The position numbers and the translations under genes are program-made. Shown here in pieces: positions 1,255 through 17,771 of a stretch of 50,588 bases of DNA (its first letter is position 1; every line of letters starts with the position of its first letter). This DNA comes from a virus (taxonomy: Duplodnaviria > Heunggongvirae > Uroviricota > Caudoviricetes), in IMG/VR virus record IMGVR_UViG_2537561945_000005, positions 1 through 50,588 of that record. The stretch is one strand, 5' to 3'. A model generated the notes under the pieces. It was not told the DNA's origin. It saw nothing but the letters and a program-made list of their open reading frames with translations, and searched no databases.

Positions 1255-1368
1255 ATAAAACCGGGTGATGCAAAAGTAGCCATTTGATTCACAAGGCCAT
1301 TGACGCATCGCCCGGTTAGTTTTAACCTTGCCCACCGTGATTCACGTTCGTGAACATGTCCTTTCAGG

Positions 1369-1444
1369 GCCGATATAGCTCAGTTGGTAGAGCAGCGCAT
1401 TCGTAATGCGAAGGTCGTAGGTTCGACTCCTATTATCGGCACCA
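1369..1444 (+). tRNA. thrW: tRNA-Thr (anticodon CGU)
   Basis: 76-nt sequence GCCGATATAGCTCAGTTGG...GGCACCA with anticodon loop TTCGTAA and encoded CCA end; cloverleaf-compatible. Confidence 0.9.
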
Positions 1445-1447
1445 TTT
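1399..1447 (+). repeat. attL core: 49-bp direct repeat covering the thrW 3' half
   Basis: Identical 49-bp string ATTCGTAATGCGAAGGTCGTAGGTTCGACTCCTATTATCGGCACCATTT recurs at 43107-43155. Confidence 0.8.
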
Positions 1448-1458
1448 AAATCAATAAG

Positions 1459-2622
1459 TTACACATCATTAGTACCTTCCTTATTTTTTGACTGGGACAA
1501 ATTTGGGACCGATGGGTTCAGGATCGAGTCTATTTGCCGTGCGTGTTCGGTAAGGTGATTAGGTGCAAGGTGAGCATATCGACGAACCATTTCGATAGAC
1601 TCCCAGCCTCCCATTTCCTGTAACACTGACAACGGGACTCCGGCTTGAACCAGCCAACTTGCCCAGGTGTGTCTCAAGTCGTGAAATCTGAAATCATCAA
1701 TACCAGCCCGTCTCAGCGCCGCTTTCCAGGCTGTGTTTGCGTCATACCGCATCTTCCTTACTGTTGGCGCTTTCGTTCCGTCTGGTTTGGTACAGCTTTC
1801 CTTGTACACAAATACCCAACGGTGATGATTCCCGATTTGTTTTTTCAATACGCGACATGCAGTATCATTCAGCGCAACGCCAATTGCGCGGTTTGATTTA
1901 CTCTCTTCCGGGTTTATCCATGCCACCCGGCGCTGCATATCTATTTGTTGCCATTCAAGGTTGATGATGTTCGAGCGTCTTAAGCCTGTTGCCAGTGCAA
2001 ATTCAACAACAGACTTTAATGGCTCCGGACATTCATCAATCAGCCTTTGTGCTTCATGGGGCTCCAGCCAGCGGATCCGTTTATTCTTTGGTTGAGGCAC
2101 TTTAATAATTGGTGCCTTATCCAGCATTTTCCATTCACGCTCTGCGGCTCTTAGTAGGGCCTTTATAAATGAAAGATGCGTAGCCTTCGTTGCAACGGAC
2201 GCTGGTTTTGGCGTGTATTCTGGAACAGGTTTCCCTTTTTTTCTGCATGCTTCTGCCCTGAGTTTCCAGTTTTCCTCATGACGCCGGTTCGTCATTTTCT
2301 GCATTGCTGAATAAATTTTTGATTCAGTGATGTCTCTTAGTTGCATCCCTGCGAAATGTTGAAGCCAGAATCCGATCCGGCTTTTGTCATCGTCCAGTGA
2401 TTTCTTATGTGCTTTCTCTTCGAGCCACCTGACACACGCTTCCTCAAACGTCATATCAGGTATTTCACCAAGTTTGCTGACCCGCCATGCTTCAGCCTTT
2501 AGCTTGTCATGGAGCTCTGTCGCCTGCCTTTTGTCCTTTGTTCCAAGAGACTGTTTAAATCTTTTACCGTTCGGCAATGTGAAACTGGCGTACCATATTT
2601 CACTTCTGCGGAAGAGTGACAT
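1459..2622 (-). CDS. int: Tyrosine integrase, P22 Int type
   Basis: 387-aa protein near-identical over its length to my recollection of P22 integrase ([19 protein letters not shown]...[15 protein letters not shown]); its 3' end lies 15 bp from thrW. Confidence 0.9.
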
Positions 2623-2849
2623 TTTCTTTCCTCTGTTATGCCATCACCCGCGTTCACCTGGACAGTATGCAGCGGAGACTGAAGCGCCGCAATGCAGGCT
2701 TGCCGTGTTGTGAGGTAAGGAGATTTTGGCTTGGTTGGATCTTTACGTGTTGCCTGTAGGCGGCCTGTTCGTATCCAGTTGGTGGCGGTTGGTCTGGATA
2801 TCTTAAGAAACTGACAGGCCTCATCGAGTGTGAGGCTGTATGATTCCAT
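2499..2849 (-). CDS. xis: Excisionase, P22 Xis type
   Basis: [33 protein letters not shown] matches P22 Xis; overlaps the int 3' end as in P22. The ORF track starts 10 codons earlier at 2879. Confidence 0.75.
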
Positions 2850-3159
2850 GGTTACCTCTGCTTTTTGAACGCATGTCACGTAACTTCTTAATGTGTTCTG
2901 CCGTTTCGATCTCTTCTGCTATCCGATCTGCATCAGCTTTATTCACAGGTTCAAAGTCATGATTAAAGCGGAACATGCTGGCGATACATGTTCTGCCTTT
3001 TCGGATGTAGTGAACTTTGTTGTGGGTAGAACGCAGGATTTTGCAGGGAGTGCCGTGGTGGTCGACGTACCAGGTGTTAGGAAAAATGATTCTGAACATT
3101 TTTACACCCCAGTTGGACGATGTTGAAATTTGCTGCTTTGAGGCCATCACAGTCCCCAT
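2821..3159 (-). CDS. Hypothetical early-left-operon protein
   Basis: 112-aa ORF in the b2/ea position between xis and exo; no family recognised and start codon uncertain. Confidence 0.35.
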   Translation of the reverse strand: MGTVMASKQQISTSSNWGVKMFRIIFPNTWYVDHHGTPCKILRSTHNKVHYIRKGRTCIASMFRFNHDFEPVNKADADRIAEEIETAEHIKKLRDMRSKSRGNHGIIQPHTR

Positions 3160-3365
3160 TGTTTGTTCTTAAGTTCGATCTCCTCCTGGCAACTTGCACA
3201 AGTCCGACAACCCTGAACAGCTAGGCGTCTTCGCTCATCTATCGGATCGCCACACTCACAACAATGAGTTGCGGATACAGTCTGGTAGTTCAGACGACGC
3301 ATTTTTATTGCTGTATTGCGCTGTAATTCTTCGATTTCTGATGCTGAATCAATGATGTCTGCCAT
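3147..3365 (-). CDS. TraR/DksA-family C4 zinc-finger protein
   Basis: 72 aa with CxxC-17-CxxC (CCECGDPI...CRTCASC), typical of phage TraR/DksA-like proteins. Confidence 0.65.
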   Translation of the reverse strand: MADIIDSASEIEELQRNTAIKMRRLNYQTVSATHCCECGDPIDERRRLAVQGCRTCASCQEEIELKNKQWGL

Positions 3366-3463
3366 CTTTCATTAATCCCTGAATTGTTGGTTAATACGCT
3401 TGAGGGTAAATGCGAATAATAAAAAAGGAGCCTGTAGCTCCCTGATGATTTTGCTTTTCATGT

Positions 3464-3679
3464 TCATCGTTCCTTAAAGACGCCGTTCAACATGCCGATC
3501 GCCAGGCTTAAATGAGTCGGTGTGAATCCCATCAGCGTTACCGTTTCGCGGTGCTTCTTTAGTACGCTACGGCAAATGTCATCGACGTTTTTATCCGGAA
3601 ACTGCTGTCTGGCTTTTTTGATTTCAGAATTAGCCTGACGGGCAATACTGCGAAGGGCGTTTTCTTGCTGATGTGTCAT
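3464..3679 (-). CDS. Small early protein, lambda orf61-like
   Basis: Position and sequence resemble lambda orf61; start chosen at the internal Met (MTHQQENALR), the ORF extends to 3745. Confidence 0.45.
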   Translation of the reverse strand: MTHQQENALRSIARQANSEIKKARQQFPDKNVDDICRSVLKKHRETVTLMGFTPTHLSLAIGMLNGVFKER

Positions 3680-3755
3680 TGAACAAGTCCCATGTCGGCA
3701 AGCATAAGCACACAGAATATGAAGCCCGCTGCCAGAAAAATGCATTCAGTGGTTG

Positions 3756-3947
3756 TCATACCTGGTCTCTCTCATCTGCTTCTGCTTTCGCCACCATCAT
3801 TTCCAGCTTTTGTGAAAGGGATGCGGCTAACGTATGAAATTCTTCGTCTGTTTCTACTGGTATTGGCACAAACCTGACTCCAATTTGAGCGAGGCTATGT
3901 GCCATCTCAATGCTCGTTCTTAACTCAACAGGAGATGCTTTGTGCAT
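3756..3947 (-). CDS. Small early protein, lambda orf63-like
   Basis: 63-aa ORF in the lambda orf63 position upstream of exo. Confidence 0.5.
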   Translation of the reverse strand: MHKASPVELRTSIEMAHSLAQIGVRFVPIPVETDEEFHTLAASLSQKLEMMVAKAEADERDQV

Positions 3948-4108
3948 ACAGCTCCCCGTTTATTATTTATCTCCTCAGCCAGCCGCTGTGCTTTCAGTGG
4001 ATTTCGGGTAACAGAAAGGCCGGGAAATACCCAGCCTCGCTTTGTAACGGAGTAGACGAAAGTGATCGCACCTACCCGGATATTATCGTGAGGATGCTTC
4101 ATCGCCAT
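3920..4108 (-). CDS. Small early protein, lambda orf60a-like
   Basis: [28 protein letters not shown] matches my recollection of lambda orf60a; immediately upstream of exo. Confidence 0.55.
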
Positions 4109-4779
4109 TGTTCCCCAAATACAAAACCAATTTCAGCCAGTGCCTCGTCCATTTTTTCGATGAACTCCGGCACCATCTCGTCAAAACTCGCCATGTAATT
4201 TTCATCCCGCTCAACCACGACATAATGCAGGCCTTCACGCTTCATTCGTGGGTCATAGTTGGCAAAGTACCAGGCATCTTTTCGTGTCACCCACATGCTG
4301 TACTGCACCTGGGCCATGTAAGCCGACTTTATGGCCTCGAAACCACCGAGCCGGAACTTCATGAAATCCCGGGAGGTAAACGGGCATTTCAGCTCAAGGC
4401 CGTTGCCGTCACTGCATAAACCATCGGGAGAGCAGGCGGTGCGCATACTTTCGTCGCGATAGATGATCGGGGATTCAGTAACATTCACGCCGGAAGTAAA
4501 CTCAAACAGGGCTCTGGCGTCGTTCTCGTACTGTTTTCCCCAGGCCAGTGCTTTAGCGTTAACTTCCGGAGCCACACCGGTGCAAACCTCGGCAAGCAGG
4601 GTGTGGAAGTAGGACATTTTCATGTCAGGCCACTTCTTTCCTGAGCGGGGCTTTGCTATCACGTTGTGAACTTCTGAAGCGGTGATGACGCCGAGCCGTA
4701 ATTTGTGCCATGCATCATCCCCCTGTTCGACAGCTCTCACGTCGATCCCGGTACGCTGCAGGATAATGTCCGGTGTCAT
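4099..4779 (-). CDS. exo: Lambda exonuclease (Red-alpha)
   Basis: 226 aa, near-identical to lambda Exo ([43 protein letters not shown]...). Confidence 0.95.
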
Positions 4780-5561
4780 GCTGCCACCTTCTGCTCAGTG
4801 GCTTTCTGTTTCAGGAATCCGAGAGCTTTCACTGCTTCGGCCTGTGTCAGTTCTGACGATGCGCGAATGTCGCGGCGAAATATCTGGGAACAGAGCGGCA
4901 ATAAGTCGTCATCCCATGTTTTATCCAGGGCAATCAGCAGAGTGTTAATCTCCTGCATGGTTTCATCGTTAACCGGAGTGATGTCGCGTTCCGGCTGACG
5001 TTCTGCAGTGTATGCGGTATTTTCGACAATGCGCTCGGCTTCATCCTTGTCATAGATACCAGCAAATCCGAAGGCCAGACGGGCACACTGAATCATGGCT
5101 TTATGACGTAACATCCGTTTGGGATGCGACTGCCACGGCCCCGTGATTTCTCTGCCTTCGCGGGTTTTGAATGGTTCGCGGCGGCATTCATCCATCCACT
5201 CGGTAACGCAGATCGGATGATTGCGGTCCTTGCGGTAAATCCGGCATGTGCAGGATTCATTGTCCTGCTCAAAGTCCATACCATCAAACTGCTGGTTTTC
5301 ATTGATGATACGGGACCAGCCATCAACGCCCACCACCGGAACGATGCCGTTCTGCTTGTCAGGGAAGGCGTAAATTTCTTTCGTCCACGGATTAAGGCCG
5401 TACTGGTTGGCGACGATCAACAATGCGATGAACTGCGCATCGCTGGCATCACCTTTAAATGCCGTCTGGCGAAGAGTGGTGATCAGTTCCTGTGGGTCGA
5501 CAGAATCCATGCCGACACGTTCAGCCAGCTTCCCAGCCAGCGTTGCGAGTGCTGTACTCAT
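4776..5561 (-). CDS. bet: Lambda Bet (Red-beta) single-strand annealing protein
   Basis: 261 aa, near-identical to lambda Bet; 4-nt overlap with exo as in lambda. Confidence 0.95.
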
Positions 5562-5566
5562 CCGTT

Positions 5567-5983
5567 TTATACCTCTGAATCAATATCAACCTGGTGGTGA
5601 GCAATGGTTTCAACCATGTACCGGATGTGTTCTGCCATGCGCTCCTGAAACTCAACATCGTCATCAAACGCACGGGTAATGGCTTTTTTGCTGGCCCCGT
5701 GGCGTTGCAAATGATCGATGCATAGCGATTCAAACAGGTGCTGGGGCAGGCCTTTTTCCATGTCGTCTGCCAGTTCTGCCTCTTTCTCTTCACGGGCGAT
5801 CTGCTGGTAGTGACGCGCCCAGCTCTGAGCCTCAAGACGATCCTGAATGTAATAAGCGTTCATGGCTGAACTCCTGAAATAGCTGTGAAAATATCGCCCG
5901 CGAAATGCCAGGCTGATTAGGAAAACAGGAAAGGGGGTTAGTGAATGCTTTTGCTTGATCTCAATTTCAGCATTAATATCCAT
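5567..5983 (-). CDS. gam: Gam, RecBCD inhibitor (long form)
   Basis: 138 aa containing the lambda Gam core [38 protein letters not shown]; the short form would start at the internal Met. Confidence 0.9.
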
Positions 5984-6081
5984 TTTTTATAAGCGTCGAC
6001 GGCTTCACGAAACATCTTTTCATCGCCAATAAAAGTGGCGATAGTGAATTTAGTCTGGATAGCCATAAGTGTTTGATCCAT
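5938..6081 (-). CDS. kil: Kil host-killing protein
   Basis: 47-aa frame [47 protein letters not shown] matches lambda Kil. Confidence 0.75.
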
Positions 6082-6214
6082 TCTTTGGGACTCCTGGCTG
6101 ATTAAGTATGTCGATAAGGCGTTTCCATCCGTCACGTAATTTACGGGTGATTCGTTCAAGTAAAGATTCGGAAGGGCAGCCAGCAACAGGCCACCCTGCA
6201 ATGGCATATTGCAT
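6050..6214 (-). CDS. cIII: CIII, FtsH/HflB inhibitor
   Basis: 54 aa [54 protein letters not shown] matches lambda CIII. Confidence 0.85.
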   Translation of the reverse strand: MQYAIAGWPVAGCPSESLLERITRKLRDGWKRLIDILNQPGVPKNGSNTYGYPD

Positions 6215-6286
6215 GGTGTGCTCCTTATTTATACATAACGAAAAACGCCTCGAGTGAAGCGTTATTGGTATGCGGTAAAACCGCAC

Positions 6287-6655
6287 TCAGACGGCCTTGA
6301 TAGTCATATCATCTGAATCAAATATTCCTGATGTATCGATATCGGTAATTCTTATTCCTTCACCTCCATCCATTGGAGGCCATCCTTCCTGACCATTTCC
6401 ATCATCCCAGTCGAACTCACAAACAACACCATATGCATTTAAGTCTTTCGAAATTGCTATAAGCAGAGCATGTTGCGCCAGCATGATTAATACAGCATTT
6501 AATAAAGAGCCGTGTTTATTGAGTCGGTATTCAGAGTCTGACCAGAAATTATTAATCTGGTGAAGTTTTTCCTCTGTCATTACGTCATGGTCGATTTCAA
6601 TTTCTATTGATGCTTTCCAGTCGTAATCAATGATGTATTTTTTGATGTTTGACAT
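6287..6655 (-). CDS. ea10: Ea10-like early protein
   Basis: 122 aa, recognised as lambda Ea10 by sequence and position. Confidence 0.75.
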   Translation of the reverse strand: MSNIKKYIIDYDWKASIEIEIDHDVMTEEKLHQINNFWSDSEYRLNKHGSLLNAVLIMLAQHALLIAISKDLNAYGVVCEFDWDDGNGQEGWPPMDGGEGIRITDIDTSGIFDSDDMTIKAV

Positions 6656-6837
6656 CTGTTCATATCCTCACAGATAAAAAATCGCCCTCACATTGGAGGG
6701 CAAAGAAGATTTCCAATAATCAGAACAAGTCGGCTCCTGTTTAGTTACGAGCGACATTGCTCCGTGTATTCACTCGTTGGAATGAATACACAGTGCAGTG
6801 TTTATTCTGTTATTTATGCCAAAAATAAAGGCCACTA

Positions 6838-7038
6838 TCAGGCAGCTTTGTTGTTCTGTTTGTCAAGTTCTCTGGCAATCATTGCCGTCGTTCGTATTGC
6901 CCATTTATCGACATATTTCCCATCTTCCATTACAGGAAACATTTCTTCAGGCTTAACCATGCATTCCGATTGCAGCTTGCATCCATTACATCGCTTGAAT
7001 TGTCCACACCATTGATTTTTATCAATAGTCGTAGTCAT
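6838..7038 (-). CDS. ral: Ral restriction-alleviation protein
   Basis: 66 aa MTTTIDKNQWCGQFKRCNGCKLQSECMVKPEEMF... matches lambda Ral. Confidence 0.85.
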   Translation of the reverse strand: MTTTIDKNQWCGQFKRCNGCKLQSECMVKPEEMFPVMEDGKYVDKWAIRTTAMIARELDKQNNKAA

Positions 7039-7108
7039 ACGGATAGTCCTGGTATTGTTCCATCACATCCTGAGGATGCTCTTCGAACTCTTCAAATTCT
7101 TCTTCCAT
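7022..7108 (-). CDS. Small acidic ORF, lambda orf28-like
   Basis: 28-aa ORF MEEEFEEFEEHPQDVMEQYQDYPYDYDY overlapping the ral start, as in lambda; too short for the ORF track. Confidence 0.35.
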   Translation of the reverse strand: MEEEFEEFEEHPQDVMEQYQDYPYDYDY

Positions 7109-7251
7109 ATATCACCTTAAATAGTGGATTGCGGTAGTAAAGATTGTGCCTGTCTTTTAACCACATCAGGCTCGGTGGTTCTCATGTACCCCTACAGCGA
7201 GAAATCGGATAAACTCTATTCACCCCTACAGAGAGCAAAAGAGAAACGCCG

Positions 7252-7833
7252 ATGAACAACTCATGGTGGCAGGAACTAATGCATTTTTTCCTGCAAGGAA
7301 TGACACTTAAACAGTTGATTCATATGCTAATCATCCTGATCATATTGATTATTGTTATGCCGGTAAGCGTAAAAGAATGGATAAACCTGCATAATCCAGA
7401 AATCCTTCCTCATTACTGGATGTATTACATCCTGTTGTTTTGCGTTAGCTATGTGCTTAACGGCGTTGTTAATTCCGCTTATCACGCTGTGACTGAAAGA
7501 ATTGAGGTATCCGCTGCTCAGAAGCGAAAATCTAAAGAAGAAAAATATGTGCAAGATTTGTTTGATTCATTAACTCTTGGAGAAAGAGCGTATTTGGCAT
7601 TCGCTGTAGCCGCTAATAACCAGCTACAAACGGAAAAGGGAGCTCATGAATCAATTTCATTGCTCAAAAAAGGACTCCTCGTTCGAAGGCCTCCTGCTGT
7701 TGGATATCCTGATACCGACCGTTTTGTTATTCCTGAAAGCTATAGACATGAGTGCTACATTCGGTTTGCCGGGAAGGCAGACAGCCTTATGGATGAACTT
7801 ATCGCTCAGGATAAGCATGGCAAAAACAAGTAA
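7252..7833 (+). CDS. sieB: Superinfection exclusion protein B
   Basis: 193-aa membrane protein on the opposite strand between ral and N, matching lambda SieB in sequence and position. Confidence 0.8.
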   Translation: MNNSWWQELMHFFLQGMTLKQLIHMLIILIILIIVMPVSVKEWINLHNPEILPHYWMYYILLFCVSYVLNGVVNSAYHAVTERIEVSAAQKRKSKEEKYVQDLFDSLTLGERAYLAFAVAANNQLQTEKGAHESISLLKKGLLVRRPPAVGYPDTDRFVIPESYRHECYIRFAGKADSLMDELIAQDKHGKNK

Positions 7834-7849
7834 TTAGCAAATGAATTTA

Positions 7850-8158
7850 TCATCTCGCCGTCAGTTGTTTTGATTTCCGGTAGCCTGCCGCGTAAATAGC
7901 TACGTTTGGCAGGCAAACACTTCCACTGCATTCATCTACTTTCTTGCAGCGAAGGCTTCCGAGTGATATTGCTTTTTCAGAAAGGCTTAACCGCTTTCTC
8001 GGGTCTTCCTGAACAGGTTCCTCACTGTCTGTGCCGAAGATCGAATCGATGATGTTGCAGATGGAATCACGCTCGATGGCCAGCTTTCTGCGCCGCTCAT
8101 GACGGCGAGTTTTGGCATTTCCTGCAAATGTTGATTTTCCGTACACGATTACCGTCAT
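7850..8158 (-). CDS. N: Antiterminator N, P22 gene 24 type
   Basis: MTVIVYGKSTFAGNAKTRRHERRRKLAIERD arginine-rich N-terminus matches P22 gp24 rather than lambda N; start at the internal Met, ORF extends to 8242. Confidence 0.8.
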   Translation of the reverse strand: MTVIVYGKSTFAGNAKTRRHERRRKLAIERDSICNIIDSIFGTDSEEPVQEDPRKRLSLSEKAISLGSLRCKKVDECSGSVCLPNVAIYAAGYRKSKQLTAR

Positions 8159-8276
8159 GATGTTTTCCTCATGTGAAATGGCTTTGGTGGTGATGCGCCA
8201 GATGCTGATCTTCTGGTTGCTGTCGTTACTGCTGCAATTCACATCACCCCAAACCCATCTCGTTTGGTATCTGTTC

Positions 8277-8310
8277 GCGCTTTGTCAGCGCATCATCGAA
8301 GTTAAAGAGC
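8277..8310 (-). promoter_or_regulatory. nutL (boxB 8277-8291, boxA ~8300-8310)
   Basis: Minus-strand reading gives GCTCTTTAAC (boxA-like) followed by GCGCTGACAAAGCGC, the P22-type boxB hairpin, just upstream of N. Confidence 0.7.
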
Positions 8311-8566
8311 CTGCCAATCTGTTCCGTTTGGCTGCCAGCGTCCTGCTGATGGTGATGATAATGAACCAATAGTTCGATATTATCAAGAACTATAAGTACG
8401 AATTGTTTGTGGTTCATTAACTTAATGGGATATGTTTTTGATATGTAAAGGAGTTTATTTTTGTAAAGATTGAAGATTGGTCAGTAGGAGAGAAAGAATT
8501 GTTTGCTGGCGTGTTAGTTCGTGGGTTAGCACATGTGCGGATGTTAAATAAGGTAGACGATCGTGA

Positions 8567-8596
8567 GGAAAAGAAAAACCGGCGCTGAGGCCGGGT
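8567..8596 (-). terminator. Rho-independent terminator ending the cI / rex-position transcript
   Basis: Minus-strand hairpin CCGGC-CTCAGC-GCCGG followed by a T-rich run, immediately downstream of the 8601-9500 ORF. Confidence 0.6.
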
Positions 8597-8600
8597 ATAA

Positions 8601-9500
8601 TTATTTGATTATTTCTTTTATAAAGACTTCTTTCGGTTGGTATTTTTTATCTGATGATTTGAGCTGGTACGTTATTGTTATATCAGCACGTACAGCAAAT
8701 TTACCTGCAAAATCTGATGGGTTTACGTTGGGGCCAAGAACCATATTTACTCTTCGATCTATTAATCCAGGGATAACAGCAGCCCAACCTTTCTCTGGAT
8801 TGTCGAGGTCTAATGCACGGATTTCAACATCAACATCAAAATGATCCTGAGTATATGACTCTGGTGTGAAGACAACTTCAGTTGGGGCTTTTTTAATGGT
8901 TTCAGCGGGAATGGTCACTGTACCACCCCCTGTACCTATGACCATCGTAGATCCTTCGTCTGCCCTAGCTGGGGCAAGCGTCTTAATGGAACTTTTGGCA
9001 AGAGTCTTCTTATTGGTTACCGTGCTTTCTATGATTGCTTGAAGACGGTCAGGTGAAATATTAGCCTCACCGGCACCAATATTGATGATTGTATTGTTAT
9101 TTGCTTCAAAGTGGGAGGTGTTGCTTGGAGCCATAGCCTTAGTTGCTAGAACTAAGCCATATCCAACCAGACCAATAACAACAGCACCAACGAGAGCGTT
9201 TCTCATTTTCCCATTTCCGATCTTTGCATGAGCGCCAGCAAGAAACTTGTCCATTTCTTCTTGGCTACCAAAGAGGAGTTTAATAACAATATCTTCATAA
9301 AGGCTTCCTGCTTCTAATCGCGCAACATGCACCGATATATCAAGGATATTAGCCCCTGTCAGTTCCTGCAAAACACCTTCTGATTGTTTTGCGATGGCCT
9401 CCCACCCTTGAAGGGAGGTAATCACATCTTTGATGCTTACAGGTTCTTTAGTTGAATAATATATGTTTTCGGTAAAGGTTAAAGATAATTCTTGGGACAT
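8601..9500 (-). CDS. Membrane protein in the rex position (candidate superinfection-exclusion or abortive-infection factor)
   Basis: 299-aa ORF directly downstream of cI on the same strand, where lambda carries rexAB; one central hydrophobic helix (ALVGAVVIGLVGYGLVLATKAMA); no family recognised. Confidence 0.6.
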   Translation of the reverse strand: MSQELSLTFTENIYYSTKEPVSIKDVITSLQGWEAIAKQSEGVLQELTGANILDISVHVARLEAGSLYEDIVIKLLFGSQEEMDKFLAGAHAKIGNGKMRNALVGAVVIGLVGYGLVLATKAMAPSNTSHFEANNNTIINIGAGEANISPDRLQAIIESTVTNKKTLAKSSIKTLAPARADEGSTMVIGTGGGTVTIPAETIKKAPTEVVFTPESYTQDHFDVDVEIRALDLDNPEKGWAAVIPGLIDRRVNMVLGPNVNPSDFAGKFAVRADITITYQLKSSDKKYQPKEVFIKEIIK

Positions 9501-9629
9501 CCGAGCCCTCGCTGTTTCTTTCGATTTGCTGTGTTAAGCTAATATTTTAATATCCATGTTTCTGTTTGCTTGCAGTGTGTTTCTCACCACCATCCAAACG
9601 TACTGGTTACTAGCTATGTGATGATGAAG

Positions 9630-10337
9630 TCATGAACTTTTCAGCCATTCCCTGGCCTCGATGTCATCTAGGTGGCGAGATTGCTTCAGAATACCAGCTA
9701 CATACTCCACCTTTGCTACTTGATGATAAGGCAACGTTATTGGCCTGTGGTCTTGGTTGATGCTTGTAAATTGGTATTCTCCGTCTCTGTCATAGCCAAG
9801 AACCTTGATCATGTTGTGCCCTTCAATGGTTCTGACAAACACCTCATCACCTGGGAATACTTTGGTGTTAGGCTCAATGAGTACATATTCTCCTGATTTT
9901 ATTCTGGGCCACATGCTGTCTCCTTTTACACGAAGACCAAAGGCATCTGGATCATCGCTATAAATCTTGAGCCACCCATCGCGCTCTTCGGTCATCTCGA
10001 TGGCACCATCAACACCAAGAATTGCCTCACCAACCACGCGCACTAACCCTTTTTTTAATTTGCCAACAATTGAAAAAGTATCTTCATCATTCGCTCCATT
10101 TAACGAAGTGCCGTGCTGAAGCCAAATAACATCAACGTTTAGAAATTTCGCAAGCGCATTCATTTTTTCCTGGCGTGGTAAAGACTCAGCATTAAACCAT
10201 TTGCTAACGCCTTTGGACGAAAGAGAAAGGGCACGGGCTATGGCCATTCCCCTACCATGTTCATCAAGACCAGCTTCTTTACAGGCTTGCGCTAGCCGCT
10301 GGGCGAATTCTTTGCGCACTTTTTCATTCTGAACCAT
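9630..10337 (-). CDS. cI: CI-type repressor with HTH and LexA-like S24 peptidase domain
   Basis: 235 aa with N-terminal HTH (GMAIARALSLSSKGVSKW) and C-terminal GDSMWP Ser/Lys autopeptidase motif; divergently arranged with cro. Confidence 0.85.
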   Translation of the reverse strand: MVQNEKVRKEFAQRLAQACKEAGLDEHGRGMAIARALSLSSKGVSKWFNAESLPRQEKMNALAKFLNVDVIWLQHGTSLNGANDEDTFSIVGKLKKGLVRVVGEAILGVDGAIEMTEERDGWLKIYSDDPDAFGLRVKGDSMWPRIKSGEYVLIEPNTKVFPGDEVFVRTIEGHNMIKVLGYDRDGEYQFTSINQDHRPITLPYHQVAKVEYVAGILKQSRHLDDIEAREWLKSS

Positions 10338-10415
10338 GAGTACGATACTAAAGCACTTGCAAAAACTTTCAGTTCAACCATAATGCGTACTGAAAGTACG
10401 AAAAAGGACATTCCT
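10338..10415. promoter_or_regulatory. Divergent operator/promoter region (oR, pRM, pR)
   Basis: 78-bp cI-cro intergenic region containing inverted half-sites ACTTTCAGT / ACTGAAAGT. Confidence 0.5.
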
Positions 10416-10643
10416 ATGCAAAATCTTGATGAGCCGATTAAAGGTGTCGGCATCCCTGAAGTTGCGAAGGCTTGTGGAGTTAGCGAAAGGGCTGTCTATA
10501 AGTGGCTCAAAAACGGCTTCCTCCCTAAGACTGAGTTTTTTGGGAAAACGAAATACGCATCAAAAATCGAAGAGATTTCTGGTGGCAAATATCAAGCAAG
10601 CGAAATGCTTGAAATAAGCAAAAAGAACCTTCTGGCAGCATAA
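10416..10643 (+). CDS. cro: Cro-like HTH repressor
   Basis: 75 aa with HTH VAKACGVSERAVYKWLKNG; start chosen at the Met with AAGGA upstream, ORF track begins at 10383. Confidence 0.7.
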   Translation: MQNLDEPIKGVGIPEVAKACGVSERAVYKWLKNGFLPKTEFFGKTKYASKIEEISGGKYQASEMLEISKKNLLAA

Positions 10644-10650
10644 GTAACAC

Positions 10651-10685
10651 CGCTCTTTATCAATCTGCACCGCCGACAACGCGGT
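10651..10685 (+). promoter_or_regulatory. nutR (boxA CGCTCTTTATCA, boxB hairpin)
   Basis: boxA consensus at 10651-10662 and a 5-bp stem hairpin ACCGC-CGACAAC-GCGGT at 10669-10685, between cro and cII. Confidence 0.6.
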
Positions 10686-10749
10686 AACTAATTAAGAACT
10701 CATCGAAAGATGCGTATTAGTGATTATTTACCTATGGAAATAGTAAGAA

Positions 10750-11049
10750 ATGGAACAAACAAATTACAGCAAACTATCACAGCGCGACGTTGATCGCGCA
10801 GAAACAGATTTACTTATCAACCTGTCAACGCTTACTCAGCGCGGTCTGGCAAAGATGATTGGCTGTCATGAATCGAAGATAAGCAGAACAGACTGGAGGT
10901 TTATAGCTTCGGTCTTGTGTGCTTTTGGCATGGCATCAGACATCAGTCCGATTAGCAGAGCTTTTAAGTATGCGCTTGATGAAATCACCAATAAAAAACG
11001 CCCGGTGTGCAAGACCGAGCGTTCTAATCAAATCCAGATGGAATTCTGA
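10750..11049 (+). CDS. cII: CII transcriptional activator
   Basis: C-terminus ITNKKRPVCKTERSNQIQMEF matches lambda CII; HTH in the middle; position after cro. Confidence 0.8.
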   Translation: MEQTNYSKLSQRDVDRAETDLLINLSTLTQRGLAKMIGCHESKISRTDWRFIASVLCAFGMASDISPISRAFKYALDEITNKKRPVCKTERSNQIQMEF

Positions 11050-11071
11050 GGTCATTACTGGATCTATCAAC
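10995..11071 (-). ncRNA. oop: oop antisense RNA (by positional homology)
   Basis: The cII 3' end and the 33-bp cII-O spacer are lambda-like; coordinates transferred from lambda oop, which overlaps the cII 3' end. Confidence 0.45.
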
Positions 11072-11081
11072 AGGAGTCATT

Positions 11082-11981
11082 ATGACAAATACAGCAAAAA
11101 TACTCAACTTCGGCAGAGGTAACTTTGCCGGACAGGAGCGTAATGTGGCAGATCTCGATGATGGTTACGCCAGACTATCAAATATGCTGCTTGAGGCTTA
11201 TTCAGGCGCAGATCTGACCAAGCGACAGTTTAAAGTGCTGCTTGCCATTCTGCGTAAAACCTATGGGTGGAATAAACCAATGGACAGAATCACCGATTCT
11301 CAACTTAGCGAGATTACAAAGTTACCTGTCAAACGGTGCAATGAAGCCAAGTTAGAACTCGTCAGAATGAATATTATCAAGCAGCAAGGCGGCATGTTTG
11401 GACCAAATAAAAACATCTCAGAATGGTGTATCCCTCAAAACGAGGGAAAATCCCCTAAAACGAGGGATAAAACATCCCTCAAATTGGGGGATTGCTATCC
11501 CTCAAAACAGGGGGACACAAAAGACACTATTACAAAAGAAAAAAGAAAAGATTATTCGTCCGAGAATTCTGGCGAATCCTCTGACCAGCCAGAAAACGAT
11601 CTTTCTGTGGTTAAACCGGATGCTGCAATTCAGAGCGGCAGCAAGTGGGGGACAGCAGAAGACCTGACCGCCGCAGAGTGGATGTTTGACATGGTGAAGA
11701 CTATCGCACCATCAGCCAGAAAACCGAATTTTGCTGGGTGGGCTAACGATATCCGCCTGATGCGTGAACGTGACGGACGTAACCACCGCGACATGTGTGT
11801 ACTGTTCCGCTGGGCATGCCAGGACAACTTCTGGTCCGGTAACGTGCTGAGTCCGGCTAAACTCCGCGACAAGTGGACCCAGCTCGAAATCAACCGTAAC
11901 AAGCAACAGGCTGGCGTGACAGCCAGAAAACCAAAACTCGACCTGACAAACACTGACTGGATTTACGGGGTGGATTTATGA
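11082..11981 (+). CDS. O: Replication initiator O
   Basis: 299 aa, near-identical to lambda O. Confidence 0.95.
   Translation: MTNTAKILNFGRGNFAGQERNVADLDDGYARLSNMLLEAYSGADLTKRQFKVLLAILRKTYGWNKPMDRITDSQLSEITKLPVKRCNEAKLELVRMNIIKQQGGMFGPNKNISEWCIPQNEGKSPKTRDKTSLKLGDCYPSKQGDTKDTITKEKRKDYSSENSGESSDQPENDLSVVKPDAAIQSGSKWGTAEDLTAAEWMFDMVKTIAPSARKPNFAGWANDIRLMRERDGRNHRDMCVLFRWACQDNFWSGNVLSPAKLRDKWTQLEINRNKQQAGVTARKPKLDLTNTDWIYGVDL
11431..11560 (+). repeat. ori-lambda: four iterons plus AT-rich segment
   Basis: Four 17-19 bp iterons (TCCCTCAAAACGAGGGA-like) at 11431, 11451, 11474 and 11497, followed by an A/T-rich stretch inside O. Confidence 0.85.
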
Positions 11982-12679
11982 AAAACATCGCCGCACAGAT
12001 GGTTAACTTTGACCGTGAGCAGATGCGTCGGATCGCCAACAACATGCCGGAACAGTACGACGAAAAGCCGCAGGTACAGCAGGTAGCGCAGATCATCAAC
12101 GGTGTGTTCAGCCAGTTACTGGCAACTTTCCCGGCGAGCCTGGCTAACCGTGACCAGAATGAACTGAACGAAATCCGCCGCCAGTGGGTTCTGGCTTTCC
12201 GGGAAAACGGGATCACCACAATGGAACAGGTTAACGCAGGAATGCGCGTAGCCCGTCGGCAGAATCGACCATTCCTGCCATCACCCGGGCAGTTTGTCGC
12301 CTGGTGCCGGGAAGAAGCATCCGTTAACGCCGGGCTGCCAAACGTCAGCGAGCTGGTTGATATGGTTTACGAGTATTGCCGGAAGCGAGGCCTGTATCCG
12401 GATGCGGAGTCTTATCCGTGGAAATCAAACGCGCACTACTGGCTGGTTACCAACCTGTATCAGAACATGCGGGCCAATGCGCTTACTGATGCGGAATTAC
12501 GCCGTAAGGCCGCAGATGAGCTTGTCCATATGACTGCGAGAATTAACCGTGGTGAGGCGATCCCTGAACCAGTAAAACAACTTCCTGTCATGGGCGGTAG
12601 ACCTCTAAATCGTGCACAGGCTCTGGCGAAGATCGCAGAACTCAAAGCTAAGTTCGGACTGAAAGGAGCAAGTGTATGA
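11978..12679 (+). CDS. P: Replication protein P (DnaB loader)
   Basis: 233 aa, near-identical to lambda P. Confidence 0.95.
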   Translation: MKNIAAQMVNFDREQMRRIANNMPEQYDEKPQVQQVAQIINGVFSQLLATFPASLANRDQNELNEIRRQWVLAFRENGITTMEQVNAGMRVARRQNRPFLPSPGQFVAWCREEASVNAGLPNVSELVDMVYEYCRKRGLYPDAESYPWKSNAHYWLVTNLYQNMRANALTDAELRRKAADELVHMTARINRGEAIPEPVKQLPVMGGRPLNRAQALAKIAELKAKFGLKGASV

Positions 12680-12966
12680 CGGGCAAAGAGGCAATTATTC
12701 ATTACCTGGGGACGCATAATAGCTTCTGTGCGCCGGACGTTGCCGCGCTAACAGGCGCAACAGTAACCAGCATAAATCAGGCCGCGGCTAAAATGGCACG
12801 GGCAGGTCTTCTGGTTATCGAAGGTAAGGTCTGGCGAACGGTGTATTACCGGTTTGCTACCAAGGAAGAACGGGAAGGAAAGATGAGCACGAACCTGATT
12901 TTTAAGGAGTGTCGCCAGAGTGCCGCGATGAAACGGGTATTGGCGGTATATGGAGTTAAAAGATGA
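12676..12966 (+). CDS. ren: Ren
   Basis: 96 aa matching lambda Ren. Confidence 0.85.
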   Translation: MTGKEAIIHYLGTHNSFCAPDVAALTGATVTSINQAAAKMARAGLLVIEGKVWRTVYYRFATKEEREGKMSTNLIFKECRQSAAMKRVLAVYGVKR

Positions 12967-13039
12967 CCATCTACATTACTGAGCTAATAACAGGCCTGCT
13001 GGTAATCGCAGGCCTTTTTATTTGGGGGAGAGGGAAGTC

Positions 13040-13480
13040 ATGAAAAAACTAACCTTTGAAATTCGATCTCCAGCACATCAGCAAAACGCTATTCACGCAG
13101 TACAGCAAATCCTTCCAGACCCAACCAAACCAATCGTAGTAACCATTCAGGAACGCAACCGCAGCTTAGACCAAAACAGGAAGCTATGGGCCTGCTTAGG
13201 TGACGTCTCTCGTCAGGTTGAATGGCATGGTCGCTGGCTGGATGCAGAAAGCTGGAAGTGTGTGTTTACCGCAGCATTAAAGCAGCAGGATGTTGTTCCT
13301 AACCTTGCCGGGAATGGCTTTGTGGTAATAGGCCAGTCAACCAGCAGGATGCGTGTAGGCGAATTTGCGGAGCTATTAGAGCTTATACAGGCATTCGGTA
13401 CAGAGCGTGGCGTTAAGTGGTCAGACGAAGCGAGACTGGCTCTGGAGTGGAAAGCGAGATGGGGAGATCGGGCTGCATGA
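13040..13480 (+). CDS. ninB: NinB (Orf) recombination mediator
   Basis: 146 aa from MKKLTFEIRSPAHQQNAIHAV matches lambda NinB. Confidence 0.85.
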   Translation: MKKLTFEIRSPAHQQNAIHAVQQILPDPTKPIVVTIQERNRSLDQNRKLWACLGDVSRQVEWHGRWLDAESWKCVFTAALKQQDVVPNLAGNGFVVIGQSTSRMRVGEFAELLELIQAFGTERGVKWSDEARLALEWKARWGDRAA

Positions 13481-14004
13481 CAATCAAATCAAATACGCCA
13501 GCACACGACAAGGACTGCTGGCAAACGCCGCTTTGGCTTTTTGATGCACTGGATATTGAGTTTGGATTCTGGCTGGATTCGGCAGCGAGCGACAAAAATG
13601 CTCTGTGTGCTCACTGGCTAACTGAGGCCGACGACGCGCTCAATTCTGAGTGGGTAAGCCACGGTGCAATCTGGAATAACCCACCGTACAGCAATATCAG
13701 GCCGTGGGTGGAAAAAGCCGCTGAGCAGTGCATACAACAGCGACAGACGGTAGTTATGCTTGTGCCAGAGGATATGTCAGTCGGATGGTTCAGCAAGGCT
13801 CTGGAGAGTGTCGACGAAGTTCGCATTATCACTGATGGACGGATTAATTTTATCGAACCATCGACAGGGTTGGAGAAGAAGGGAAACAGCAAAGGCTCCA
13901 TGCTGCTGATTTGGCGACCGTTCATCAGTCCTCGACGGATGTTTACTACCGTATCCAAAGCGGCATTGATGGCGATCGGGCAGGGCGTCAGGAGGGCGGC
14001 ATGA
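13477..14004 (+). CDS. Phage N6-adenine DNA methyltransferase (Dam-like)
   Basis: 175 aa with NPPY motif ([10 protein letters not shown]) in the nin region; ATGA overlap with the ninB stop. Confidence 0.7.
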
Positions 14005-14177
14005 GGCGACAGCGACGAAGTTTCACCGACATCATCTGCGAAAACTGCAAATACCTTCCAACGAAACGCTCCAGAAATAAACGCAAGCCAATCCCAAAAG
14101 AATCTGACGTAAAAACCTTCAATTACACAGCTCACCTGTGGGATATCCGGTGGCTAAGATATCGTGCGAGGAAATGA
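14001..14177 (+). CDS. ninE: NinE-family protein
   Basis: 58 aa [37 protein letters not shown] matches the lambdoid NinE family. Confidence 0.6.
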
Positions 14178-14179
14178 CA

Positions 14180-14521
14180 ATGGATTATTCACAGTTAAGT
14201 GATTTTGAAATTAACAGAATGGTAGGAGACATAATTTTTAAAGGCCTTTGGGCAAGTAAACCGGAAACATCAGGGAATAACACCAACAAATGGTATTACG
14301 GAAATGCTGATACAACTTTTGAGCCATTAAATCATTTGCCTGACTACTGCAATGATCCGAGCGCTTCATGGCCGATTATTGAGAAATACAGGATTTCTAT
14401 CTTAGACCAGTTAACTGAATGGTGTGTGGATGCAAAAGGCGTAAGCCCAATATTTGATACCAGACCTCTCCGCGCCGCCATGATTGTCTTTCTCCTGATG
14501 CAGGAGGCCAATAATGCTTAG
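14180..14521 (+). CDS. Hypothetical nin-region protein
   Basis: 113-aa ORF with GAGGA 8 nt upstream; no family recognised. Confidence 0.45.
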
Positions 14522-14708
14522 CCCATCTCAATCCCTTCAATACCAGAAAGGAAGCATAGAGCGGGCTTCAATGAGCACAGAGTGGATTCTATCTAGGTTT
14601 AGCGCATACAGAAGATTGCCGGTAAAGGGCATGCCAAGCAAGTCGATGCTGCATATGCAAAAGAATGCGCGCTGGAAGGTATGGCGAAAACACAGGTTAT
14701 GTGGCTGA
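14514..14708 (+). CDS. NinF-like ORF, divergent after 12 residues (possible remnant)
   Basis: N-terminus [12 protein letters not shown] matches lambda NinF, but the remainder lacks the Cys-rich NinF body. Confidence 0.3.
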
Positions 14709-14727
14709 AAGAGGGGATTATTAAGGC

Positions 14728-15090
14728 GTGAATACCTACAGCATCACATTACCCTGGCCTCCGAGCAATAATCGCTATTACCGCCATAATCGCGGGCGCA
14801 CGCACGTCAGCGCAGAGGGGCAGGCATACCGCGATAACGTCGCCAGAATCATTAAAAACGCAATGCTGGATATCGGCCTGGCTATCCCTGTGAAAATCCG
14901 CATTGAGTGCCACATGCCGGATCGCCGTCGCCGTGACCTGGATAATCTGCAAAAAGCCGCTTTTGACGCACTCACTAAAGCAGGTTTCTGGCTGGATGAT
15001 GCTCAGGTCGTTGATTACCGCGTTGTGAAGATGCCTGTTACCAAAGGTGGGAGGCTGGAACTGACCATCACCGAAATGGGGAATGAATGA
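14728..15090 (+). CDS. rusA: RusA Holliday-junction resolvase
   Basis: 120 aa, essentially identical to E. coli DLP12 RusA. Confidence 0.9.
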
Positions 15091-15227
15091 TGTTTGAGTT
15101 TAATATGGCAGAACTTCTTCGCCACCGCTGGATGCGCCTGCGCTTATATCGTTTCCCCAGTTCTGTTTTGACCGATTACCGAATACTGAAGAATTACGCC
15201 AAAACCCTGACAGGAGCAGGAGTATGA
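15090..15227 (+). CDS. ylcG: YlcG-like small protein
   Basis: 45-aa [25 protein letters not shown]... between rusA and Q as in DLP12; below the ORF-track length cutoff. Confidence 0.45.
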   Translation: MFEFNMAELLRHRWMRLRLYRFPSSVLTDYRILKNYAKTLTGAGV

Positions 15228-15312
15228 AGTCAGAGATAACAATCAACTAATACTGTTTTGTTGATTTTTGCTTGTAATTGGCGTTCTGGTCTGATTTTTG
15301 TGGAGTAAGTTG

Positions 15313-15696
15313 ATGCGTGATATTCAGATGGTTCTTGAGCGTTGGGGAGCGTGGGCGGCTAATAATCATGAAGATGTGACCTGGTCGTCCATTGCCGCCG
15401 GTTTTAAGGGATTAATTACTTCAAAAGTAAAATCTCGCCCGCAATGTTGTGACGATGACGCGATGATTATTTGCGGGTGCATGGCCCGTCTGAAAAAGAA
15501 CAACAGCGATTTGCACGATTTATTAGTAGATTATTATGTAGTCGGTATGACATTCATGTCACTGGCAGGTAAGCATTGCTGCTCTGATGGTTATATCGGG
15601 AAAAGGTTACAGAAGGCTGAGGGCATAATTGAAGGGATGTTAATGGCATTAGATATCCGGTTAGAGATGGATATCGTTGTTAATAACTCTAATTAA
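15313..15696 (+). CDS. Q: Late antiterminator Q, DLP12 QuuD / phage 21 type
   Basis: 127 aa [22 protein letters not shown]... matches DLP12 QuuD; sits upstream of the porin and lysis genes. Confidence 0.75.
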
Positions 15697-15885
15697 TATG
15701 CCAATTATTTACTAAAAGTTATTAAAAATGGGGCGTTGAGACGCCCCCAAAAATAAAGGGTAATATATAACAGAAGGTTTATATAGTTAGAAGCAAGGTT
15801 GTGCTTCTAAAGGAAGTGGCTTGAGGGAGCCACTTATATGTTGGGGAGGCAACGCCTCCCGCAACATATCTTTTTCGTAATCAGA

Positions 15886-16983
15886 TTAGAACTGGTAAAC
15901 CAGACCTACAGCAACGATGTCATCAGTGCTTACACCGAGTGCTTTAGTGAAGTCATTTTTGTCAAGCAGGTTGATTTTGTAATCAACGAAAGTAGACATA
16001 TTTTTGTTGAAGTAATAGGTTGCACCTACATCAACATATTTGACTAAGTCCTGATCGCCCCATACTCCAAGATCCTTACCTTTAGATTGCAGGTAAGCAA
16101 CGGACGGACGCAGACCGAAATCGAACTGATATTGTGCAACAGCTTCGAAGTTTTGGGCTTTATTAGCAACGAAGTGATCAGCAAATACAGTCATATTCTG
16201 GGTTTCAGAATAGGTAGTGGCCAGGTAAATGTTGTTAGCGTCATATTTCAGACCTGCGGCCCAAACTTCTGCATTTTTACCGGAAGCAAATACTTCAGGA
16301 AGAACTTTCCCTGCATTAACTTGAGTGTCGGTACGATCAGATTTCGCATAAGTTGCACCGATACCGAATCCTTCGTATTCATAGGTAGCAGAGAAACCGA
16401 AGCCATCACCGTTACCTTCAGTGTAGTTATCGAAATCGCTACGATCGTTTTTGCCTTGGTACTGAGCAGCAAAGTTCAGACCATCAACCAGACCAAAGAA
16501 GTCGTTGTTACGATAGGTTGCAACACCAGTTGCACGTTGAGTCATGAACACGTCGGTTTGAGTCCAAGTGTCACCACCGAATTCTGGCAGGACGTCAGTC
16601 CACGCACCGATGTCGTATGCTACACCGTAGTTACGGCCGTAATCGATGGAGCCGTAGTCACCGAATTTCAGGCCAGCGAAGGCAAGACGGGTTTTATCTT
16701 TGGAGGAACCTTGAGATTCAGCGCGGTTGCCTTTGAATTCATATTCCCACTGACCGAAACCAGTCAGTTGATCGTTGATTTGGGTTTCACCTTTGAAGCC
16801 AAGACGGGCATAAGTAGTATCACCATCATCTGCATCATTAGAGGAGAAGTAGTGCTTAGCATTAACTTTCCCGTACAGATCCAGCTTGTTACTGTCTTTA
16901 TTATAAATTTCAGCTGCCTGAGCAGACATCGCCATCAGTACTGATGCAGCTACAGCAGAAATTGCCACTGTTAATTTTTTCAT
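15886..16983 (-). CDS. nmpC: Outer-membrane general porin, NmpC/Lc (OmpC family), intact
   Basis: 366 aa with signal peptide [23 protein letters not shown] and C-terminal ...VGLVYQF; OmpC/OmpF-type beta-barrel; same location as nmpC in DLP12. Confidence 0.85.
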
Positions 16984-17189
16984 CGTGAGCCCTTTTTTTG
17001 AACTATTATTAAAAAATGATGTCACTGCGCGATAAATATTCATCTAATCAATGTGATTATTTCAAGATGTAAGTTTTGGTTTCTCGTTTGATTTGTGAAG
17101 TAGATCTCTATTTTTATCTGAACTTTTTTCTATCGAATCCTATTCATGGCTCTTTGCTGAATAAAAATAAATCTATTAGCCAATTTATA

Positions 17190-17225
17190 TTAACGGCTGT
17201 TATTTATAAGTGCTCTATAATTTGA
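17190..17225 (+). promoter_or_regulatory. Candidate late promoter pR' (-10 TATAAT at 17216-17221)
   Basis: Consensus -10 hexamer about 190 nt upstream of a strong terminator; -35 is weak. Position between Q and lysis genes fits a Q-dependent late promoter. Confidence 0.35.
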
Positions 17226-17410
17226 AGGTTCAATTTAAACCGGCTAAAAATAACACTGGAAATTATTTGTTGGTTATTTGTTGGGATTTGCTTATGTATT
17301 TGTAGTGGTGTTTTCAATACTCGGTAGCATTCTCGCAAATATCATTTAGTGGTTTACGTACGTAAAAAATTGGTTATGCTGTTAAGAGTGGTTACTTCGT
17401 CACACAGCTT

Positions 17411-17443
17411 AAACCCGCCGTCGAGCGGGTTTTTCCATTTTTT
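17411..17443 (+). terminator. Rho-independent terminator (candidate tR')
   Basis: Hairpin ACCCGC-CGTCGA-GCGGGT followed by TTTTTCCATTTTTT, upstream of the holin gene. Confidence 0.6.
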
Positions 17444-17555
17444 GAGTCTCGATATTAGCTGATAACCCAATACCTGAGTTATTCACTGACTCCGAGTCTG
17501 TTACGTTTCGTAGTATTCCCTCAATTTACACCCGCTTTGTCTGCGAGGTGGGGTT

Positions 17556-17771
17556 ATGAAATCCATGGATAAGTTAACAACGGGTGTCGCCTATGGCACC
17601 TCAGCAGGTAGTGCCGGTTACTGGTTTTTACAGCTGCTCGATAAAGTCACGCCCTCACAGTGGGCAGCAATAGGTGTGCTGGGTAGCCTGGTATTTGGCC
17701 TGCTGACGTACCTGACAAACCTTTATTTCAAGATTAAAGAAGATAAGCGCAAGGCTGCGAGAGGTGAATAA
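17556..17771 (+). CDS. S: Pinholin, S21 type
   Basis: 71 aa with two TM segments; matches phage 21 S / DLP12 EssD. Confidence 0.85.

Follow-up and report, generated by a model that had tools for sequence, protein, structure and literature searches.

The stretch of DNA analysed here (the window; 50,588 nucleotides, positions 1 to 50,588 of IMG/VR virus record IMGVR_UViG_2537561945_000005) carries a lambda-like prophage locus in which a single open reading frame (ORF), encoding a protein of 299 amino acids (aa), lies directly behind the repressor gene cI, in the slot that lambda fills with rexA and rexB. Gene order is otherwise as in lambda (sieB, N, pL/OL, the rexB–rexA slot, cI, OR, cro; Table 1). 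A first-pass annotation of this DNA had described the same layout, with one membrane-protein gene ending in its own terminator in place of rexAB and with sieB across N, and all of these elements were recovered. The ORF is dispensable, variable cargo of the slot behind cI that is swapped as a cassette, and its product, a predicted inner-membrane protein, is a good candidate for a new phage-exclusion protein.

The 129-nt spacer between cI and the ORF contains neither a terminator-like nor a sigma-70-like promoter site in a sequence scan of the minus strand, its RNA has no stable fold (z = 0.29 against shuffled sequence) and no Rfam family matched anywhere in 8200-10700. Since terminator, promoter and stable RNA fold are all missing from the spacer, read-through of the cI transcript into the ORF is expected, and expression in the lysogen by co-transcription with cI is likely. 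In phage 933W, which has the same cI type, the genes 3' of cI are reportedly co-transcribed with it (PMC3564112, citing Tyler 2004). The cI-ORF unit ends 6 nt past the stop codon of the ORF in a hairpin, CCGGCCTCAGCGCCGG, followed by TTTTTCTTTT on the same strand; the GC hairpin has a folding energy of -9.1 kcal/mol (z = -1.84).

Table 1. Features of the repressor locus in the window, with genes adjoining homologues of the 299-aa protein at other IMG/VR loci. Stx, Shiga toxin.
Feature	Position	Strand	Basis or remark
sieB superinfection-exclusion gene	7252..7833	+	Pfam SieB E = 2.5e-22; phrog_1301
N antiterminator, largest ORF	7850..8242	-	RefSeq: 7850-8158; beyond cassette and pL region
Cassette differing from Stx2a phage with same cI and pL/N flanks, 1,134 bp	8468..9601	-	BLAST against L010
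Largest unit common to copies in other contexts	8567..9562	-	Leader, ORF and terminator
Terminator-like hairpin (8579-8594) and T-run (8569-8578)	8569..8594	-	Closes the cI-ORF unit
299-aa ORF, stop codon included	8601..9500	-	ATG start; ORF list, family match, homologues, dN/dS
cI-to-ORF spacer, 129 nt	9501..9629	-	Terminator, promoter, fold and Rfam scans
Shine-Dalgarno GAGGG	9506..9510	-	5 nt before ATG of the ORF; read from sequence
CI-type repressor, 933W immunity type, 235 aa	9630..10337	-	HTH_3 and Peptidase_S24 domains
Divergent cI/cro control region; OR, PRM and PR expected here	10338..10382	.	Inside block 97% identical to Stx phages
Cro-like HTH protein, divergent from cI	10383..10643	+	Domain scan; RefSeq product shorter, 75 aa
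Small convergent gene downstream of homologues	L027 6926-7123; L029 2434-2640; L037 6937-7143; L043 7045-7248; L038/L040/L041 7411-7635	-	
Next genes overlapping the stop codon of homologues	L034 6906-7346; L035 6906-7166; L054 6867-7184; L055 6948-7517; L047 6929-7732; L059 6885-7382		

Comparison with related phages, which the first-pass annotation had proposed as a check for gene swapping, places the ORF in a variable slot. The window cI shares 97% DNA identity with cI of Stx-converting phages, and BLAST against an Stx2a phage (L010) gave homologous blocks at 7941-8467 (N/pL, 93%) and 9602-11000 (cI to cII, 97%), between which lie 1,134 bp in the window versus 1,519 bp in the Stx2a phage, where the segment encodes DUF3024 and NYN-domain proteins. 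At least five cassettes, the 299-aa ORF being one, occur behind the same cI allele in E. coli: beside the DUF3024 and NYN pair of the Stx2a phage, EDL933 carries DUF3024 with a hypothetical gene and the Stk protein kinase, strain C3 a 180-aa hypothetical gene with a DUF1828 gene, and strain E423 a lone 126-aa hypothetical gene. The cI-containing part of the query was found at 95-99% identity without the ORF in 129 phage records, and together with it in only 11, all of them lambda-like coliphages of the Lambda_ev/1H12 series. Among complete E. coli genomes the arrangement of the window is patchy, being present at >=99% identity in 150 of 5,426, and a 1.3-kb query around the ORF (8400-9700) is 100% identical to a prophage of CE0021a. 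Just past N, the Stx2a phage (L010; Stx2_EH0505) also has a pair of ORFs (108 and 296 aa; 1458-2671) that overlap each other and by eye resemble an IS3-family transposase pair.

Copies of the gene with 94–97% protein identity (81–95% in DNA) are found in four other contexts, three of them (L026, L028 and L029) directly behind a different CI-type repressor and one (L027) with no upstream repressor identified. Homology between these copies and the window extends only from 36-62 nt before the ATG to just past the terminator (about 9540..8567 in the window), and an alignment of six upstream regions revealed no conserved regulatory DNA. This mobile unit thus carries a terminator but no conserved region of promoter size, which fits reliance on read-through from the host operon. 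The range originally delimited by the first-pass annotation, 8567-9629, comprises terminator, ORF and spacer, and its left end is also the left end of the mobile unit. Ratios of nonsynonymous to synonymous substitution rates (dN/dS) against copies 81-96% identical in DNA are 0.02-0.09, and the protein is therefore under strong purifying selection. Two damaged copies were also seen: in E. coli NZ_CP090319.1 (H58, 2225003-2227080), IS1 is annotated inside the matched stretch containing the ORF, and at IMG/VR locus L031 (5498-6404) the ORF is split into pieces of 201 and 105 aa.

The only named family that contains the protein is phrog_4506, listed in PHROGs with function unknown (E = 1.9e-170, residues 1-299 against profile positions 1-300 of 300). 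A word-indexed search returned 55 clusters at 90% identity from Enterobacterales (Salmonella, Pectobacterium, Yersinia, Serratia, Kluyvera, Edwardsiella, Lonsdalea and Citrobacter) and Accumulibacter, and a profile search of 1.84 billion representatives returned 663 clusters (50% identity) at E <= 1e-3 and 282 at E <= 1e-30. The best 150 members listed are mostly 290-335 aa long with near-full-length matches, shorter ones being partial, and none carries extra domains. Full-length homologues of 25-38% identity were found by tblastn in Pseudomonas phages and a Leptolyngbya phage. Database names of family members are all 'hypothetical protein'.

A scan of IMG/VR yielded 50 loci, of which 37 were assessable, that is, non-duplicates of the E. 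coli copy with upstream sequence, some of them related to each other. A same-strand repressor lies directly upstream in 20 of the 37 (17 S24-type and 3 helix-turn-helix (HTH)-only CI-type), and neighbour clustering across 38 loci found no conserved partner gene, the repressor group being the only large conserved neighbour. In Lonsdalea prophages (52% identity) the homologue occupies the cI-to-N slot behind a cI without significant full-length similarity to that of the window, in Pectobacterium it lies behind a short Rac-type CI, and in P. aeruginosa phage D14C the order is CI, one gene, homologue. Other positions include antisense and adjoining Q near the lysis genes (Edwardsiella), directly after a Q-like antiterminator (P. 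protegens phage PseuP_222), after a spanin gene, ahead of a lysozyme gene (a cyanophage with a DDE transposase), ahead of a protease gene (a phage with Mu-like head genes) and after the primase of an island resembling P4 or phage-inducible chromosomal islands (Serratia). In some phages, PseuP_222 among them, the homologue is oriented with the late genes.

Neighbouring genes at the downstream side of some homologues were also recorded. A small convergent gene of 65-74 aa, absent from the window, lies just downstream of the homologue in seven IMG/VR loci, and the one copy scanned (L037) had no Pfam match. Several distant homologues overlap at their stop codon with the gene that follows, by 4-19 nt, an arrangement suggestive of translational coupling; the genes that follow are mutually unrelated except for the L034/L035 pair, and the 146-aa one had no Pfam match.

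An AlphaFold2 model built from 35 homologues (mean predicted local distance difference test score 84, predicted template modelling score 0.68) shows a beta-alpha-beta-beta-alpha domain at the N-terminus (residues 1-94), then a long helix (101-123) that is followed by a short conserved segment, three helices (138-179; the helical region of the predicted layout is 147-180) and a C-terminal beta-barrel (about 215-297), with the N-terminal domain of about 100 aa being ferredoxin-like in the model. Residues 101-123 form the sole strongly hydrophobic segment (Kyte-Doolittle 2.24 over 19 aa; next best 0.93), in agreement with the transmembrane helix reported in the first pass; this helix is rich in glycine and across the family is conserved in hydrophobicity only. 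Over 87 members, lysine and arginine residues average 3.3 in the stretch of 15 residues ahead of the helix and 1.1 in the 15 that follow it, with the N-terminal count higher in 77 members and the C-terminal count higher in 2. From this charge bias the N-terminal domain is predicted to be cytoplasmic and the C-terminal ~175 aa periplasmic, making the protein a predicted single-pass inner-membrane protein with N-in/C-out topology. Within the closer family, conservation peaks at FEANNNTIINIGAGE (residues 131-145; entropy 0.48 vs ~1.6 elsewhere), a block that starts 8 residues past the helix, and the invariant motif ANNNTIINIGAGE falls in the predicted periplasmic part; a second conserved block, IRALDLD..GWAAV, spans residues 227-242. 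In the Pseudomonas branch the first of these motifs has diverged. The length of the protein and the position of its helix (~residue 100) recall the single-pass signalling proteins RseA and FecR, a likeness that would speak for a role in signalling to the prophage's own switch.

Similarity searches returned next to nothing for the protein beyond its own family. Pfam, NCBIfam and PADLOC scans gave no significant match (none at E <= 1 for PADLOC), nor did Pfam scans of 52 diverse family members, and a DUF1206 match (E = 0.0067) was rejected as it covers only the hydrophobic helix and falls below the Pfam cut-off. The family profile matched no PDB sequence, structure-based comparison of the model gave matches at noise level only, and no kinase, nuclease, toxin, anti-sigma, DNA-binding or other enzymatic domain was recognised in Pfam, structure or library scans. 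No homology to the annotated exclusion families in Pfam and PHROGs was found: SieB (PF14163), of which the neighbouring gene is a homologue, did not match, and for RexA and RexB there was no Pfam match at E <= 1 and hhalign of the family profile gave probabilities of 0.1% for lambda RexA and 0.5% for RexB, consistent with the first-pass impression that the protein is unrelated to either.

A weak link of the family to defence runs through a distant member, P0186, which shares 29% identity with the 299-aa protein (E = 4e-31) and matches the PADLOC candidate PDC-S42 (PDLC05015) collinearly over residues 31-247 against positions 23-227 of 302, about two thirds of the profile (E = 5.9e-6). The PDC-S42 profile, with its 302 positions, is of the same length as the family, and it was matched by 2 of the 52 diverse members and not, at E <= 1, by the window protein itself. 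On the short metagenomic contig that carries P0186 (L069, 123-653), the gene immediately upstream of it codes for a small PLD-family (PLDc_2) protein.

The slot between cI and pL is known for accessory genes made from the PRM transcript, namely RexAB, the 933W kinase and 434 Hex (PMC3564112), and with exclusion genes already known there another occupant would be unsurprising. The first-pass annotation had argued that genes in this position usually protect the lysogen; RexAB, 933W Stk and 434 Hex are indeed demonstrated exclusion systems, which for the ORF itself amounts to a base-rate argument only. Hex also modulates induction by dampening RecA-mediated repressor cleavage (PMC3564112), and a position in the cI operon is therefore no proof of exclusion. 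The reading of the ORF as a lysogen-protecting gene is plausible, if supported only in part.

Comparison with characterised systems shows where the likeness lies. The ORF shares with lambda rexA/rexB the slot and strand between cI and OL/pL, a terminator at the end (as lambda has after rexB), the nature of accessory cargo including a membrane component and, by the argument given above, probable lysogen expression; Rex differs in comprising two proteins, a four-helix channel (RexB) and a cytoplasmic partner (RexA), rather than one protein with one helix and a large predicted periplasmic domain. The 933W Stk cassette occupies the same slot behind essentially the same cI allele (~97% DNA identity), and Stk is reportedly co-transcribed with cI and reported to abort infection by phage HK97 (PMC3564112); that cassette consists, however, of a eukaryote-like protein kinase (Pkinase E = 2e-46) with DUF3024 and other genes, whereas the 299-aa protein stands alone and lacks a kinase domain. 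BstA of Salmonella prophage BTP1 is likewise a lone defence gene directly behind a prophage repressor, in diverse Gram-negative prophages, but localises to phage DNA replication sites in the cytoplasm and works through abortive infection (PMC8585504), whereas the 299-aa protein is predicted to reside in the inner membrane and has no PADLOC match. SNIPE, an E. coli defence protein found constitutively at the membrane, targets siphoviruses where their genome is injected (PMC13190303), so that defence at the injection site exists, although SNIPE does so with a nuclease domain that cleaves the entering DNA and none is recognisable here. In location and logic only, the protein also resembles Glo of Vibrio phage K139 and SieA of P22, prophage-expressed single proteins that are membrane-anchored or periplasmic and stand for the type of mechanism suggested below; K139 exclusion is cited in PMC3564112 and P22 SieA in PMC10461980, and several genes of this type adjoin the repressor. 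The gene is thus likened to the cargo of cI/PRM operons (RexAB, Stk, Hex, BstA, K139 exclusion) while standing outside those families. The tail assembly blocker Tab was considered and rejected, since it occupies a different slot, between terminase genes, and is confined to close relatives of phage JBD26. Single, prophage-expressed superinfection exclusion proteins located in the envelope are also represented by HK97 gp15 and lactococcal Sie2009. Glo, SieA, gp15 and Sie2009 differ from the 299-aa protein in being mostly smaller and in lacking a 100-aa cytoplasmic domain.

Taken together, we suggest that a promoter-less accessory cassette of leader, ORF and terminator has been inserted into the repressor operon of a lambda-like prophage, and that in the lysogen the ORF would be transcribed by read-through of the cI (PRM) transcript. 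Its product would be a single-pass inner-membrane protein with a ~100-aa ferredoxin-like domain in the cytoplasm and a ~175-aa domain in the periplasm, and would exclude heterologous superinfecting phages at the envelope: the periplasmic domain, with the invariant ANNNTIINIGAGE motif near the membrane and the beta-barrel, may hinder the incoming genome from crossing the inner membrane, giving superinfection exclusion rather than cell suicide. Co-transcription with cI, the anti-phage role and the step that would be blocked are what we infer. A lysogen-expressed envelope exclusion protein is, as a whole, the best explanation of the data, at a probability of roughly 0.4. That the protein serves some anti-phage exclusion or defence function, by whatever route, we consider probable, while the assignment to the envelope and to genome entry in particular is tentative.

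The strongest competitor is an abortive-infection system in one polypeptide, a sensor and effector silent in the lysogen and triggered through the cytoplasmic N-terminal domain or by perturbation of the envelope at the periplasmic side, in which the glycine-rich helix would oligomerise and depolarise the membrane, doing the job of RexA and RexB in one protein. This would suit a gene sharing its slot with RexAB and 933W Stk, both abortive systems (PMC3564112), and a membrane protein that stands alone, has a glycine-rich helix and is conserved in its domains on either predicted side of the membrane; matches to a Pycsar transmembrane-effector Pfam family in one distant member (E = 0.0026) and to a PADLOC 2TM 'Effector' model in another (E = 0.0098) point the same way but are at chance level. 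A single helix, conserved in hydrophobicity only, is nevertheless a weak basis for a pore. A block to entry is favoured over abortive infection because the best-conserved residues are periplasmic, because no toxin-like or enzymatic domain was found, and because some homologues are oriented like the late genes of the phage that carries them, which would be harmless for a blocker and risky for a triggerable suicide protein. Abortive infection seems unlikely.

Less probable still is a lysogenic-conversion factor with no anti-phage role, an envelope protein altering host physiology such as tolerance of toxins or bacteriocins that act in the periplasm, envelope stress or colonisation. Moron slots also hold cargo other than defence genes, this prophage itself having a porin gene that lies between Q and the genes for lysis, and both the purifying selection and the near-identity in 150 E. 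coli genomes would fit a conserved host target. The family is, however, spread over phages of Enterobacterales, Pseudomonas, Accumulibacter and a cyanobacterium, and this wide host span favours a target shared across phage biology over one tied to a single host niche; in addition, the characterised occupants of the slot are exclusion systems (PMC3564112) and structural matches are at noise level. A modulator of the prophage's own switch, relaying an envelope signal to the choice between lysis and lysogeny through an anti-sigma-like layout or dampening induction like 434 Hex, which is made from the cI transcript and acts on induction (PMC3564112), would explain why the repressor gene is the only conserved neighbour, but is improbable given that the gene follows repressors unrelated in sequence and type (S24-cleavable and HTH-only), that this cI functions alongside four other cassettes, that nearly half of the assessable loci have no adjacent repressor and that no similarity to anti-sigma or DNA-binding domains was detected.

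Several observations weigh against an envelope exclusion protein as well. The PDC-S42 link, weak and indirect, ends in a candidate that is itself unvalidated, the window protein matches no PADLOC model, and full-text searches of PMC open-access and bioRxiv content by accession, motif, PHROG and PADLOC identifiers found no mention of the family or of PDC-S42; the DefensePredictor supplements contain neither the accession nor the sequence of the protein. The positive-inside rule is the sole basis of the predicted topology. No repressor adjoins the gene in 17 of the 37 assessable IMG/VR loci, and homologues in the late-gene direction indicate that expression in the lysogen is not universal. To our knowledge, entry-blocking exclusion proteins are mostly shorter, and very strong purifying selection is unlike that of the fastest-evolving arms-race genes. 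Finally, the cytoplasmic N-terminal domain, which a simple periplasmic blocker would not need, is conserved as much as the periplasmic part, suggesting coupling across the membrane. The family might also be a widespread single-protein 'outside-in' phage sensor, whose conserved periplasmic domain would recognise the ejection apparatus or tape-measure protein of a phage injecting at the inner membrane and whose helix would signal to the conserved cytoplasmic ferredoxin-like domain, halting infection. We consider this version a long shot; if true, it would be a prophage-borne immune receptor detecting a phage before any phage gene is expressed, with a fold that has no solved or annotated relative.

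Elsewhere in the window, a full-length Gram-negative porin gene (15886-17043, minus strand; Pfam Porin_1 E = 5.6e-157) lies on the strand opposite to the late genes. In the CE0021a prophage (98% identical) the porin, annotated as ompC, lies between a Q-type antiterminator and the lysis genes. The porin would be a second lysogen-expressed change to the envelope besides sieB and the 299-aa protein. The match between the window and the CE0021a prophage (L001) is confined to 3170-18534, at 98% overall; as the late and structural region differs (1-3169 and 18535-50588 are unmatched), the phage is a mosaic. At the start of the cro-like ORF, a perfect palindrome, CGTACTGAAAGTACG (10386-10400), was flagged as terminator-like by the scan and is more likely to be an operator than a terminator. 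The 9-mer AAGTACGAA recurs at 8394-8402 in the pL-side region; a k-mer comparison of the OR and OL regions gave a single shared 9-mer and was rejected as a means of operator mapping. In the lambdoid prophage NC-SV of E. coli NC101, a co293-like small RNA, svsR, has been reported at the cI 3' end (PMC12803456; 2026); the corresponding position here is 9630-9700, and svsR was rejected as relevant to the 299-aa ORF, that paper concerning another matter.

In the databases and full texts searched, the family to which the 299-aa protein belongs lacks a functional annotation, a structural relative and any literature; it is broad and uniform in length, and ranges from E. coli to Pseudomonas in its places behind repressors, with a further occurrence in a cyanophage. 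If it is true that its members exclude phages, they would constitute a new single-gene defence family. The occurrence of at least five cassettes behind one cI allele provides a natural experiment for finding further prophage defences. A periplasm-facing mechanism, if true, would join the small number of defences known to work at the stage of genome entry.

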